NCBI GenBank assembly: GCA_964016885.1
Contig: OZ024740.1
Location: forward strand, 169,074,001-169,138,000
DNA: 64,000 nt
Source: Eledone cirrhosa
Lineage: Eukaryota
Reading direction: 5' to 3'
Positions 22,166-42,952 of this stretch are shown here, one piece after another. The notes beneath the pieces are model-generated. The model worked only from the letters and a program-made list of their open reading frames with translations. It had not been told where the DNA came from and made no database searches. A program made the position numbers and the translations under genes. How positions within the stretch are numbered: the stretch's first letter is position 1; each line of letters starts with the position of its first letter.

Positions 22166-22440
22166 GACCGGCAATTGCTCTGTATAATCAGTTCCTGATT
22201 ATTACTGGAATTCTATAAGAATCCAGCCTCTATAATTTTCGGCAGAGGTCGGCGAGTACGTTGCTCTGAGGAATACCAACAGTGTGAAACAGATCTGTCA
22301 GCTTCTCTCCCTTCCTTTGCTGAAAAAAGAAGTAAGTGACATCGTCACTACTTTAAAATAATAGCGCAAGGTCTTCAAAATGTTTTTAATTAAACATACA
22401 GTATATTACCAAATATACTATGCATACATATATATATATC
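22166..22440 (+). mobile_element. Hammerhead-bearing repeat family A, single partial unit in the opposite orientation
   Basis: Reverse complement of 42445-42722 (gaccggcaattgctctgtataatcagttcc...gtcactactttaaaataatagcgcaaggtcttcaaaatg). Confidence 0.7.
22263..22302 (+). ncRNA. Minimal type I hammerhead ribozyme (repeat family A)
   Basis: GCU-CUGAGGA-AUAC caaca GUGU-GAAA-CAGAUCUG-UC-AGC; core intact, palindromic stem III, short 3-bp stem I. Confidence 0.75.
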
Positions 22441-22722
22441 ATTCATTTCATTTCATTTTTCATTTCATTTTACGTCCACTTTTCCCTGCTTGCAAGGGTG
22501 GGACGGGAACTGATTTTGGCTTGATTTCTACAGCTGGATGCCCTTCCTAACACCAACCTCATTTACAGTGTGTGCTGGGTGCTTTTTTGCCGTGGCACCT
22601 CCACGACTACTTTGCAGTGGAATGATATGGACCCCAGTCCCTATCATCTCATTTCTACAGTTGAGTAAACTGGAGTAATGTGAAATAAAGTGTCTTGCTC
22701 AAGGAAACAACACATCACCCGG
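22441..22722 (-). mobile_element. CORE-type SINE, 5'-truncated
   Basis: Reverse complement of 28596-28875. Confidence 0.85.
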
Positions 22723-23022
22723 TATATATATATATATATATATATATATATATATAAACGGAAAAAATGAAACGATATTTCATTTCCCACTCTTAGTACG
22801 GCTGTTACTTAAATATAAGTATGTACACGTACATACACATATGTATACCGACGTACAGTAGTATGTATATATATATATACATACATGCACACATATATAT
22901 ATGCACGTATGGATTCACCGAACATTTATTATAATGCTCGGTGTGTTTGTAAACAAACATCCCGTATTAAGCCGTAGTGTCTAGCAACCACCGTTGCTCG
23001 TTTGTTCAACACTGACAAAGGA

Positions 23023-23065
23023 ACGCTGTACTAGTTTCAAGCTTGTTAGCTATCGTCAACAACGT
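23023..23065 (-). ncRNA. Minimal hammerhead ribozyme (family B, unit 1)
   Basis: Minus strand reads ACGUUG-UUGACGA-u AGCU aaca AGCU u-GAAA-CUAG-UA-CAGCGU; C3 changed to U, stems intact, GUA triplet. Confidence 0.7.
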
Positions 23066-23423
23066 ATACCTTCCTGCCAGATTGTTGAACGTATATACTT
23101 ACCTTATGCATATTAACGGCTGAGTAGCCCAATTTGCATATCGAGTGGGTTAATCGGTCGGATGCACCGAAAACGATATTTCATTTCCCACTCTTAGTAC
23201 GGCTGTTACTTAAATATAAGTATGTACACGTACATACACATATGTATACCGACGTACAGTAGTATGTATATATATATATACATACATGCACACATATATA
23301 TATGCACGTATGGATTCACCGAACATTTATTATAATGCTCGGTGTGTTTGTAAACAAACATCCCGTATTAAGCCGTAGTGTCTAGCAACCACCGTTGCTC
23401 GTTTGTTCAACACTGACAAAGGA

Positions 23424-23466
23424 ACGCTGTACTAGTTTCAAGCTTGTTAGGTATCGTCAGCAACAT
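23424..23466 (-). ncRNA. Minimal hammerhead ribozyme (family B, unit 2)
   Basis: Minus strand reads AUGUUG-CUGACGA-u ACCU aaca AGCU u-GAAA-CUAG-UA-CAGCGU; canonical core, one stem II mismatch. Confidence 0.72.
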
Positions 23467-23939
23467 ATACCTTCCTGCCAGATTGTTGAATGTATATACT
23501 TACCTTATGCATATTAACAGCTGAGTAGCACAATTTGCATATCGAGTGGGTTAATCGGCCGGGTGCACCGAAAACGATAAACGGAAAAAATGAAACGATA
23601 TTTCATTTCCCACTATATATATATATATATATATATATATATATCTCGAACAAGACAATCACTCTTGCCTCAAGTGGGAAAACCCCCGTCCAAACCCATG
23701 CAAGCGTGGAACACGGACGTTAAACGTTGATGATGATGATGATATATATATATATATATATATATAGCAAGTTAATGGCATAGCCACACATATCTCCATC
23801 TCTTTTACTTTTAACTTTTGAAAATTGTGAAACTTGTGAAACTGGTAAAGTTATAAATTATTGTGAATAAACCTTCTTAAGGACTCCAATTGCATTTTCC
23901 ACTTCTTTTTCCTATATATTTATTATTGTTATTATTATT

Positions 23940-39290: not shown

Positions 39291-39574
39291 CTATATATTT
39301 CTTCTTTTTTTTATTTTTTATTTTTTAGCCCTTGGTGTACTTCCTCATCCTTGCTTTACCAACTTGTGTATTTCCGGGTTCTTACTCTATATTGTTAGGC
39401 TACATAATTCTACCTCTAATCACATTCATTCTTATGTAGTTAACACAATAGTATACTTGCTCTAATTTAACCTTTCAAACTAGGGTTTAGTCTACATGTG
39501 ATATTATTCCTTATCTGTATGGGAAGCATGGTTTTCATAAATTTGGCTATTTGCATATTGTAGTATCATTTGTC

Positions 39575-40505
39575 TTTAGAGATAGAAGCCTTTTCCAAAG
39601 ATCTTGCTTGCAGTCTGACCTGGACACAATGCAACAATGGATCTCAGACTGGCAACTCAAGCTAGCTGTGGACAAGTGCACCACCATGCATTTTGGGAGT
39701 AAAAACCCAGCGTCCACATACTCCCTCCACAGCACTAATATCAAGAAGTCTTCTTGTGGACGTGACCTGGGCATTACGGTCAGCAGCGATTTGCGTTGGA
39801 CGAAGCACATCTCTAAAATTGTCAAGAGGGCCGAGGGTGTTTAGCATCACTCAGCAAGACCTTTGTCAGCCGCTCTCCAGCTATCTATTTAAGGCTGTAC
39901 ATGGCTATGGTGCGGCCACACTTAGAATTTGCATCACCAGTCTGGAACCCCCTATCTTGCTCAGAACATTGACTGCCTGGAAACTGTTCAGAGACGTGCA
40001 ACCAAGCGAATACCCTCCATCAGGCATCTACCATACTCTGCGCCTTGCTTCTCTGGGCATGGATACATTGAAGCTCCGACGCCTGGCAAGTGACTTGGTA
40101 AACACCCACAAAATTGTTAACCATCTTGCCAACAACAACCCTGAGTATCTTTTTGATTTCCATGTGTCTAACACACGTGGGCATGCCCACAAAGTCAGAA
40201 AACAGCACAGTTCCCATGACTTTTGGAAACATATTTTCACGCTCAGAGTTGCTGAAGCATGGAACAAACTACCTGCATCGGTTGTTAGCTGTCGAGACAC
40301 TGCATCCTTTAAGGCCTCCATGCTTCCCGAGATTCGCCAACACTACACCTAATGTTCCCCCTCCATACACATACACACATGTATATCATGACTATTCACT
40401 TCCCTGACATTTGTGTATTATTCTATGTACTATACATGCACCTTTGACGAGTTGTAGTGCACCTGAACACTTCACACAATAATTTCATTATATTATATCA
40501 TTATA
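39575..40505 (+). mobile_element. CR1-clade LINE, 5'-truncated
   Basis: LQSDLDTMQQW...DKC, same family as 4980-5768, TRGHAHKVRK, RVAEAWNKLP. Confidence 0.9.
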
Positions 40506-41844
40506 TAACCATTTTAAGTGCAAATAGTAGTTATTCTTGTTGGCAGGTAAACTAAAAATAAAGTAATTTTCTTCAACAAAATCATTTGATGAGTAGTCCA
40601 GAACATTAAACTAACTGTTGCCATGCCACTGTTTACAGAGCTACAAGCTAACTACTCTTCAGTCAAATGTTTAATACCTTACCTTATTTGTCTATTAATT
40701 CAATTTCTTCCTTCAGAACAATTGTCATAACACAAAAACCACATCGGAGAGAAAAAAGGAGAGTGTGATGCACAAGGCAACTGTTTTTTAATGTAACCTT
40801 GGGTTGATCAGTGCCTGCTGAATGGAATTTGGTAGATGGAAACTATATGAAAGACTGTTATATATATATAGTGACTCTCATGTAACAAATGATATTTTAA
40901 TCAGTCACTGTTTTGGGATAAGCATACTTGCAGCCACTATGGCTATGTAAACAGAACCCAAAACTGTTTAGTCATGCTTTAACAAAACGGCAGCAAGATT
41001 CTGCTTTTCTTTTCAGGTATTCTAAAATATTGGTTTCTGAATTAGGCACAAATCCAACAATTTTGGGGGAGGGGAAGGTCGACTGAATCGAACCAGTGCA
41101 TTACTGGTACTTTATTTTATCGACCCCATAAGGATGAAAGGCAAAGCTAATCTCAACAGGATTTGAACTCAGATCGTAAAGGGTCGTAACTCTTTGCCAT
41201 AAAGCATGTTGTCTGACGCCCCACTGATACTACCAATCCACTTGATTACACATTTGATTTTATAAACCGGAATATAAGCATATTTTTTTATCAATACATT
41301 TATATAAACTTTGTTTTTACTAATGGTGTAATTTGAAATTGATATTTTTCTAAGCATAAATTAATATCTATTTCAAATTTGAACTTCACAACTTTTGGAA
41401 GGAAAAATACTCTTTAACTACCAGGGCCAGATTTAGACCTGTGTGTGTGGGGGGAGGGGGGTCACTTCAGGTTCTCATATGCAAAAAATTATAATACACA
41501 GCAAACACCCAATTTTACATATTAAAGTTGGCTTGGTGCAAGTAATTGGAATTGAAAAGTTATACATACAAGTATTAAATTAAAAAAATCTAACCATCCT
41601 CTTTTTACGTCCACTTTCCATACTGGCATGTGTTGGTCAAGGATGTATGTGTCTGTGAGTTCGTGTTGGCTTTTCATCTTTAAATTAAAACAGTTCCAAA
41701 ATATCACTGACCTGTTGCTAAATTTGACTCTCTCACTTTCTCTTTCATTCCATCCAGAGTATCAGAACTCACTTCTTAGCCATAATAAAGAATATATACA
41801 TATGTATACATAATGAGAGAGACAGTATATATATATATATATAT

Positions 41845-42370
41845 CATCATTATCATTTTTATGTCCATTTTTCCATGCTTGCATGGGTTGGACGGGTCCT
41901 TCTCAGCATGGCATCTCTCCACATGTTACATTCCTTCGTCATCTCCTCTGCCAGTCTTAGTAATTTGAGGTCCGCTCTCACAACCTCTTCCCAGGTCATT
42001 CTCCGTTGTCCTCCATTGTGGCAGTTCTCTAAACTTCTTCCATCCTATCCTTATTCTAGCTATTATACTCTCAGTGCACTCTCCTCTGTTGCTAATGAGG
42101 TCACCGAGATAGCAGACACTATCAACCACGTCTATGGATCATTGCTGTGACTGGTAAAGGTTTATATCATTAGCAGTCTTCTTCACGATTTCTCCTGTGC
42201 ATCTTCTACAAGCAAGGTTCTCCTGTTAGTCTACTCGTTATCCCACTACATCTTTTGTGTACCCAAGATTTATATTGTGTACATTGTATGGAGTTTATGC
42301 CTACTCCTTTTCTGCATATTAAGCATGGTCCCTTAGGGAATGTGGGTGCTGTCTTCTCTCATACTCATTA
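41845..42370 (-). mobile_element. Deleted RTE LINE fragment
   Basis: Minus strand reads CLICRKGVGINSIQC...WVHKRCSG and VDSVCYLGDLIS...GWKKFREL. Confidence 0.7.
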
Positions 42371-42417
42371 CCACTTATATATATACATATGTGTGTGTGT
42401 GTATATATATATATATA

Positions 42418-42952
42418 TTAGAATTGGTGCTCTGAAATAGCGATATATATATGAATGTATATATATAGTGTATTTTGCAATATACTGTATGCTTAATTAA
42501 AAGCATTTTGAAGACCTTACGCTATTGTTTTAAAGTAGTGACAATGTCACTTACTTCTTTTTTCAGTAAACAAAGGGAGATAAGCTGACAGATCTCTGTT
42601 TCGTACTGATGGTACTCCTCAGAACTTACCATTCCCTTTGCCTGCTGAAAATTATGAATGTTGGATTCTTATAGAATTCCAGTAATAATTGGGAACTGAT
42701 TATACAGAGCGGTTGCCGGTCAAGCAAAAATTGAAAATTAGAATTGGTGCTCTGAAATAGCGATATATATATATGAATGTATATATAGTGCATTTTGCAA
42801 TACACTGTATGCTTAAGTAAAAGCATTTTGAAAACCTAACGCTATTGTGTGACATAGTCACTACTTTTAAACAATAGTGTAAGGTCTTCAAAATGCTTTT
42901 AATTAAGCATACAGTGTATTGCAAAATACACTACATACACATTCATATATAT
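42418..42952 (-). mobile_element. Hammerhead-bearing repeat family A: 320-bp unit, partial second unit and inverted segment
   Basis: ttagaattggtgctctgaaatagcg at 42418 and 42738; 42850-42950 is an inverted copy of the unit's first part; begins next to (TA)n. Confidence 0.75.
42579..42630 (-). ncRNA. Minimal type I hammerhead ribozyme (repeat family A), intact
   Basis: Minus strand reads GGUAAGUU-CUGAGGA-GUAC caUca GUAC-GAAA-CAGA ga UCUG-UC-AGCUUAUC: 8-bp stem I, complete core, 4-bp stem II, GUC cleavage triplet. Confidence 0.85.

Follow-up and report, generated by a model that had tools for sequence, protein, structure and literature searches.

The window analysed here is a stretch of 64,000 nucleotides from the 3.0-Gb genome assembly of Eledone cirrhosa (GCA_964016885.1, contig OZ024740.1, positions 169,074,001 to 169,138,000 of the forward strand). 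It contains, between its positions 22,166 and 42,952, four loci made of short repeats that carry type I hammerhead ribozyme motifs. Loci 1, 3 and 4 correspond to three subfamilies of a first family, A, with a mutual identity of 76-83%, and locus 2 belongs to a second family, B. The units measure 315-322 bp in family A (~320 bp) and 422 bp in family B, with a GC content of 0.33-0.39. The features are as follows, the short (S) and long (L) 3′ ends being described further below.

22166..22439, + strand: family A, copy of subfamily A1, 0.86 unit, 5′-truncated, whose short (S) 3′ end leads into a TA tract (sequence, alignment)
22266..22299, + strand: type I hammerhead with a CUGAGGA core, a 4-bp stem II including one U-G pair, a palindromic stem III and GUC (descriptor; 68.5 bits)
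22440..22722, - strand: dispersed repeat unrelated to A and B, likely a tRNA-headed short interspersed element (SINE), within the TA tract that separates the 3′ ends of loci 1 and 2
22755..23614, - strand: family B, partial tandem of 2.1 units with TA tracts on both flanks; 21 bp are deleted where its units join, and the long (L) 3′ end is at 22755
23029..23059, - strand: type I hammerhead of family B with a UUGACGA core, a stem II of U.U plus 4 bp, a CUAG palindrome and GUA (descriptor)
23430..23460, - strand: second hammerhead of family B, likely decayed, with a CUGACGA core and a stem II interrupted by a private C.C mismatch (relaxed filter)
28983..29401, - strand: family A, subfamily A3, partial tandem of 1.3 units, TA on both sides, long 3′ end at 28983
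29150..29182, - strand: type I hammerhead with the U3-A8 core variant, an 8-bp stem I, a CAGCUG palindrome and GUC (descriptor)
42418..42862, - strand: family A, arm of subfamily A4, 1.4 units, long 3′ end at 42418 against (TA)n
42587..42622, - strand: type I hammerhead with a CUGAGGA core, a GUAC/GUAC stem II, CAGAGAUCUG as stem III and GUC (descriptor)
42863..42952, + strand: inverted, 5′-truncated arm with a short 3′ end (alignment)

Hammerheads were searched with a type I descriptor, in a strict and a loose form, and 100 local dinucleotide shuffles served as control. Four matches were obtained (+22266-22299, -23029-23059, -29150-29182 and -42587-42622), against a background of 0.15 on average for the loose form (maximum 1) and 0 for the strict one. 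The fifth motif, -23430-23460, escapes the normal descriptor because of its private C.C mismatch, and was recovered only when the stem II filter was relaxed. In the hammerhead of locus 1, cleavage is predicted after 22299. The core pair U3.G8 of 23029..23059 is a minor allele, found in 5 of 88 family B regions. A covariance model trained on family A alone, whose E-values are rough, gave 52-69 bits for the three A motifs; on the unrelated B motifs it gave an E-value of 0.007 for -23029-23059 and of just 3.7 for -23430-23460.

The four loci and five motifs are thus all present where a preliminary description of this DNA had placed them, and several details had to be revised. Locus 1 is a copy of only 0.86 unit (275 bp). 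Stem III is palindromic as claimed except at locus 4, where CAGAGAUCUG is an imperfect palindrome. The uniform 4-bp stem II does not hold for A3, which has C.A at its base, nor for B, which has U.U at the base followed by 4 bp. The B unit of about 400 bp is correct for locus 2 (401 bp, through the 21-bp deletion), the family-wide length being 422 bp. The ribozymes are of type I, as proposed, but not “minimal”: by the definitions given in PMC4209133, in the part compared here, they are of canonical type with a short palindromic helix III. Finally, the proposed check against Rfam returned no hammerhead family among its 84 window matches at E<=5; the miRNA matches in that output were discarded as artefacts of TA repeats.

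No open reading frame (ORF) of at least 120 aa was found across the loci, save an overlap with a frame of a long interspersed element (LINE) at 42907. The recognisable ORFs of that size in the window resemble LINE and Tc1-type fragments, as judged by eye, and the repeat landscape is reminiscent of octopod cephalopods. No Penelope protein match was found anywhere in the window, and A and B units adjoin unit to unit, without an ORF for reverse transcriptase (RT) and GIY-YIG endonuclease between them. At locus 4, the junction of the two arms sits in a natural hairpin of the unit, and the boundary is uncertain within 42849-42863.

Both families are abundant genome-wide: a 27-nt motif of one A subfamily has 3,305 exact matches and a 24-nt B motif 21,359, the reversed control giving 0 in each case. 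These exact-motif counts are lower bounds on units, not numbers of insertions. The full YUGANRA..GAAA..UH core was intact in 142 of 217 distinct A regions and in 88 of 117 B regions. In the 142 A regions, core pair 3/8 was C-G in 69, U-A in 72 and a C.A mismatch in 1. Stem II of family A occurs as ACAC/GUGU, GUAC/GUAC, AUAC/GUAU, GCAC/GUGC or GCAU/AUGC, and stem III varies in length and sequence, yet is palindromic or almost so. Compensatory changes were seen in stems I-III and in the core pair. A two-sided change affected 10 of the 15 A pairs across 17 recurrent haplotypes, a count that ignores relatedness; 0 of 500 shuffles reached 10/15, and slid structures gave 0-2 pairs. The earlier suggestion that stem sequences change with pairing kept, as expected of structural selection, is upheld by stem and core-pair covariation in A; B, more uniform, shows one stem I covariation. 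On this comparative sequence evidence, the ribozyme fold of A and B is judged to be under selection.

In the predicted fold, stem I reaches ~20 bp or more in both families, and helix II has 4 bp. The predicted unit circles are self-paired, with minimum free energy z-scores of -5.4, -5.4, -9.6 and -5.9 (60 shuffles each), with the caveats that the antisense is about equal in three of four and that TA palindromes inflate the B value. On cofolding, dimers were 7-12 kcal/mol more stable than two monomers, the active fold being not always formed. A conserved hammerhead fold with predicted self-cleavage is present in both families and, by the definitions of PMC4209133, their short palindromic helix III motifs would be expected to act as dimers. 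Loci that qualify as candidate “active” retrozymes include L167, with five intact motifs in a row, L132 and L256. Within the window, two motifs are present together at locus 2 only, and one of them is damaged.

The anatomy of the insertions is as follows. In ribozyme sense, A arms end about +141 or +171 after the cut, and B arms +212 to +219 or +273 to +275 after it, while 5′ ends are scattered in both. The fixed 3′ ends are 25-60 nt apart, which leaves a tail of ~25-30 nt in A and ~55-60 nt in B; the cut site itself lies mid-unit, away from the unit ends. When sets were picked by a 3′ motif only, one of the two fixed sites was used in A by 96 arms of 105, and in B by 80 of 94. The 8 nt past a fixed end were A/T-only and TA-like in 100/141 A and 81/118 B arms (all sets), compared to just 0/15 and 3/17 past non-fixed ends. 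The termini carry neither poly(A) nor a LINE-like 3′ end.

Back-to-back arm pairs follow a simple rule. Of a total of 149 pairs, 36 had an unclassable end, and 105 of the remaining 113 combined one short and one long end, where half would be expected under independence. This was observed in every set (41/47 for A, 31/32 for B, 9/10 for A1, 8/8 for A3, and 16/16 for a further A set chosen by 3′ end), and locus 4 of the window conforms to it. A cruder, motif-based end classifier applied to L264-L313 gave 6 short+long and 3 short+short pairs, with ends visibly mislabelled, and the alignment was used instead.

Arms longer than one unit are common (35 of 96 in A, 35 of 80 in B). Past the long end, A and B run into their own next unit, with periods of 320 and 422 bp, and arrays of 16 to over 30 units exist. 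Divergence between units of long arrays is 8-15% in A and 5.8% in one B array. An A array of at least 5.3 kb, with units 8-15% divergent, was found at L200, and a B array of over 30 units, organised in a higher-order repeat of period 3, spans L255, L043, L049 and L256 (G000:C4, about 352.2847-352.299 Mb). The higher-order repeats of long arrays (L231, L049) stem from local unequal crossing-over; a dimeric circle as the source of the alternating units of L231 was considered and abandoned, the allele pattern fitting unequal crossing-over better. At L235, two near-identical back-to-back B insertion pairs are repeated within 7 kb, likely by segmental duplication. Across four contig runs, family B was also encountered in two further ones of organism A, as a full-length piece in organism B and as a partial one in organism C, which bears on its presence and not on its expression.

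TA tracts are stacking hotspots, and the ends of Penelope families P1-P4, described in the next paragraph, recur in many A/B loci. In the window, at 22166-23614, an A copy and a B copy direct their 3′ ends into one TA tract, with the SINE-like repeat (22440..22722) between them; tRNA matches of that repeat come from three other copies, and the order of insertion is a deduction.

The same genome holds many Penelope-like elements. Out of 10,595 GIY-YIG candidates, 150 were scored and 50 loci examined; the latter represent several families, with RT followed by GIY-YIG in frame. A CX4CxxC linker precedes the C-terminal GIY-YIG domain in 5 of 7 frames, P5 lacking the first Cys and P7 the motif. The candidate partners P1-P6 would thus be of Neptune/Nematis type, an assignment made on a linker common to both clades and not on a tree. 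An Atlas search matched only RT/GIY-YIG look-alikes. The Penelope-like ORFs carry their own type I hammerheads downstream. Family P1 has a 3′ untranslated region (UTR) of ~1.3 kb ahead of its hammerhead and 7,261 exact tail matches genome-wide. Like A and B it has two fixed ends against (TA)n, and its pairs were short+long in 8 of 8 cases; P2-P4 have two ends against TA as well. Past its long end, P1 continues into its ORF. Long frames are present: a stop-to-stop frame of 1,096 codons at L093, and separate frames of 152 and 938 codons at L091, between two pseudo-long terminal repeats (pLTRs). Six or more Penelope-like families, each with a type I hammerhead of its own and several with the U3-A8 core, were noted at L091, L093, L094, L106, L110 and L064. 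The divergent family P7 (L101, L108, L128) has no CxxC linker and a CA-rich 3′ UTR; the descriptor found no hammerhead in L101 or L108.

Taken together, A and B are most likely protein-free hammerhead repeats (non-LTR retrozymes) copied in trans into (TA)n by a Neptune-type Penelope RT-GIY-YIG enzyme of the same genome, a reading to which we give a probability of about 0.83. The preliminary description had proposed non-autonomous, TA-targeting hammerhead retroelements dependent on a Penelope-like RT, and this is sustained by the covariation, the insertion signature and the abundance of Penelope-like elements with the same signature. Its expectation of Penelope elements sharing the termini was confirmed for the target and the two-end behaviour, and not for sequence, no shared pLTR having been found among the 50 GIY-YIG loci examined. 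In the mechanism we propose, tandem A/B copies would be transcribed in ribozyme sense, and the RT-GIY-YIG enzyme, which is predicted to be dimeric for the related Poseidon protein (PMC11167929, as far as drawn on here), would nick both strands of the self-complementary TA target. One cDNA would then begin at each of two internal start sites, aided by a few bases of TA microhomology, and the far ends of the two cDNAs would be linked, in many cases at natural hairpins. Afterwards, arrays would lengthen locally by unequal crossing-over. A tighter version is that each insertion is a single coupled event, in which a dimeric Neptune-type enzyme would prime both (TA)n strands from two fixed starts, one per strand, on one ribozyme-made circular RNA, and would recognise retrozyme structure and not pLTR sequence; we put it forward tentatively, and consider it rather doubtful. 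The enzyme may recognise A and B by structure.

Several points weigh against this reading. Family B is nearly uniform, its single covariation lying in stem I, and the covariation counts carry no correction for relatedness. No pLTR like A or B was found at the 50 GIY-YIG loci examined (150 listed, 10,595 candidates); 42 local alignments of A/B with Penelope sequences gave z<=2.6; and among 37 loci picked by the A 3′ end, none had a Penelope ORF directly upstream. Given the lack of an A/B-like pLTR and of an upstream Penelope ORF, no particular family is assigned as partner. The last 10-25 nt of A and B are slightly like P1 ends, but AT-rich, and a likeness between the family A hammerhead and that of P4 was unsupported on alignment. 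Variants common to paired arms, discussed below, could reflect one master active at the time. From other systems, one of nine Xenopus dimers cleaved (Li et al., bioRxiv 10.64898/2026.07.22.740005) and, for Poseidon in vitro, uncleaved RNA was the main substrate, RT starts were not homologous to the target and there was no strand difference in start site (Frangieh et al., PMC11167929), as stated in the portions of these reports used here.

Could A and B merely be 5′-truncated pLTR remnants of an autonomous Penelope-like element? They have the same ends, target and inversions as P1, the GIY-YIG loci examined are 50 of 10,595 candidates, and 21 Xenopus Penelope entries with pLTR homology are listed in the sections consulted of Li et al. 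(bioRxiv 10.64898/2026.07.22.740005). Yet beyond the long end A and B run into their own next unit, up to arrays of over 30, where P1 by contrast runs into its ORF; more than a third of the arms exceed one unit; and no arm examined has a Penelope ORF directly upstream in sense. We therefore hold this explanation to be improbable, an old origin of A and B from a pLTR being possible. Spread as a satellite or minisatellite at the DNA level, or as SINE-like elements moved by LINEs, with the hammerhead present by chance, would account for the higher-order repeats within arrays (L231, L049) and would suit a window in which LINE fragments and SINEs are common. It leaves unexplained that 0 of 100 shuffles give the strict motif and that compensatory changes occur; the two fixed ends and the short+long rule are unexpected from DNA-level spread, and the termini lack the poly(A) or LINE-like 3′ end of LINE-moved copies. 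It is very improbable indeed.

A more even contest concerns the RNA template. Read-through of more than 10 nt past the cut was found in 70 of 96 A arms and 57 of 80 B arms; together with the arms over one unit, this implies that a cleaved linear monomer is not the main template. There is an even chance, in our estimate, that what is usually copied, by rolling reverse transcription, is a circle arising from dimer-dependent self-cleavage and ligation; the read-through would also be explained by an uncleaved multimer. Only a little below that, we place a variant with the same enzyme and signature, which is not exclusive of it, where an uncleaved multimeric RNA is the template and the ribozyme trims read-through or needs a protein. 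Paired arms diverge less from each other than from other loci (3.7% vs 8.6% in A, n=37; 1.8% vs 3.5% in B, n=29), tandem neighbours are likewise closer to each other, and this agrees with a single template for each event. One young B arm, some 7 intact units long and with 0.5% divergence between units, is what a circle copied by rolling reverse transcription could yield. Multimers that are almost identical and whose ribozymes are intact (L167, L032), and L047, where one rare allele is present in all three segments, speak for the circle against the uncleaved multimer, as does the fold kept across subfamilies, from which cleavage would matter for propagation. A pure monomer circle is at odds with tandem neighbours as diverged as unrelated loci (7/41 in A, 15/56 in B, a few rows being repeated by overlapping loci) and with the dimer at L025, which joins two subfamilies. 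Such heterogeneous neighbours favour the uncleaved multimer, for which heterogeneous long arrays are possible sources, and so does the Poseidon result in vitro cited above (PMC11167929, in the part used). Between the two templates we regard the balance as about even.

Stops of 5′ ends at the cut, considered as a sign of cleaved linear templates, were not clearly above controls and are not used as support: within -2..+12 of the cut the rate ratio was 1.2 in A (p 0.37) and 2.3 in B (p 0.04), two of the seven B ends coming from one duplicated locus. Genome-wide, five exact long hairpins with differing flanks have the cut at their centre; a control palindrome gave 2, and stem III gave 2 short fold-backs. 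The insertions at L257-L261 (G000 C1, C17, C25, C26, C1569) and at L178 form long hairpins around the first four post-cut bases. Both cDNAs would seem to have run off the end of a cleaved RNA there, a pattern that is suggestive and not significantly above control palindromes.

In a post hoc observation, the 5′ ends are mildly enriched near the long start (A +161-200, 13 ends over 1,823 nt at risk; B +241-280, 10 over 1,772) and at natural hairpins too (A +41-60). Simple stalling could account for this, or the completion of a full turn around a circle. Locus 2 of the window deserves mention here. Over 22771-23572, all 8 inter-unit differences fall in 23050-23162, in ribozyme sense upstream of the cut, and 0 in 22771-23028; 5 rare alleles are present in the 5′-most partial unit and none in the other two segments. 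The locus looks chimeric, by template switch near the cut or by gene conversion.

As regards known systems, A and B resemble the metazoan non-LTR retrozymes of PMC7229834 (coral, Mytilus 350-390 bp, axolotl 330/350 bp) in size, ORF-less tandems, GC below 50%, one type I hammerhead per unit, palindromic helix III and self-paired predicted circle. B recalls axolotl Amex1 by its palindromic tetraloop on a minimal helix III, and Amex2 by U.U at the base of helix II. They differ by being mostly dispersed insertions of 0.4-2 units with Penelope-type ends, TA targeting and inverted arms, features unreported in the parts of that paper compared here. It is also in that paper that Cervera and de la Pena (2020) suggested a mobilisation of retrozymes by Penelope-like elements. 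For vertebrate retrozymes, Li, Clavereau and Pollet (2026, bioRxiv 10.64898/2026.07.22.740005) likewise concluded that they depend on and co-occur with Penelope-like elements. Their basis is co-occurrence and pLTR homology in Xenopus, ours an insertion signature, no pLTR homology having been found at the loci examined; the species set in the sections consulted contains no molluscs.

With Neptune/Nematis-type Penelope-like elements bearing an endonuclease (EN+), A and B have in common, as far as the portions used of PMC8557442, PMC11167929 and PMC4209133 go, 5′ truncation, partial tandems, an inverted arm, a one-end tail, microsatellite bias and type I hammerheads including U3-A8. Penelope hallmarks are tandem copies, an inverted arm and a tail that is often present at just one end (Craig et al., PMC8557442), and U3-A8 is a known Penelope hammerhead variant (PMC4209133). 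In Poseidon, the tail lies between two internal RT starts, and both target strands are cut and extended (Frangieh et al., PMC11167929). Unlike EN+ elements, A and B have no ORF, and they combine a long stem I with a 4-bp stem II. The minimal hammerheads of Penelope pLTRs have a helix II of 7-8 bp, a helix I of 4-5 bp and little or no helix III (PMC4209133); B has in common with that form a short palindromic helix III and an extra base at helix II, but both families keep a 4-bp helix II and an extended helix I. Another difference is the TA microhomology between the A/B ends and the target, which the Poseidon starts lack in vitro (PMC11167929). The non-autonomous Chlamys elements, e.g. MRC1 (Craig et al. 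2021, PMC8557442), are alike in being non-autonomous, pLTR-forming and multicopy head-to-tail. In the sections consulted, they generally share 3′ sequence with autonomous families and belong to a clade without canonical hammerheads, unlike A and B. No description of families A and B, nor of the short+long pair count, was found in the literature (a scope that leaves aside Dfam and Repbase). They appear to be undescribed families, of a class and a Penelope partnership already in print.

Elsewhere in the window, an unexplained 140-bp tandem without hammerhead (31415-31680; 1.9 copies, 86% identity) lies beside a SINE-like end. SINE-like repeats of a dense family, headed by a tRNA-like part and containing an internal 48-bp tandem module, occur at 4462-5026, 16800-17033 and 54459-54692, and as many 300-bp copies.

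The enzyme that inserts animal retrozymes, and the circle as its template, are still presented as hypotheses in the parts used of PMC7229834 and bioRxiv 10.64898/2026.07.22.740005. The insertion scars of A and B point to Penelope-like machinery without need of sequence homology, and the short+long rule (105/113, and 8/8 in the autonomous P1) quantifies a feature known qualitatively and constrains how both strands are primed. Our results add two new families, and further support, to a kind of system that is already known; the genomic signs of Penelope-type mobilisation are unusually clear in them. Since one genome offers over 24,000 motif matches together with templates of small size and long RT-endonuclease frames of natural origin, an existing in vitro assay could put the question to the test. 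If the reading of a single coupled event were true, small animal circular RNAs would have left, in tens of thousands of copies, a fossil record of their rolling-circle retrotransposition.

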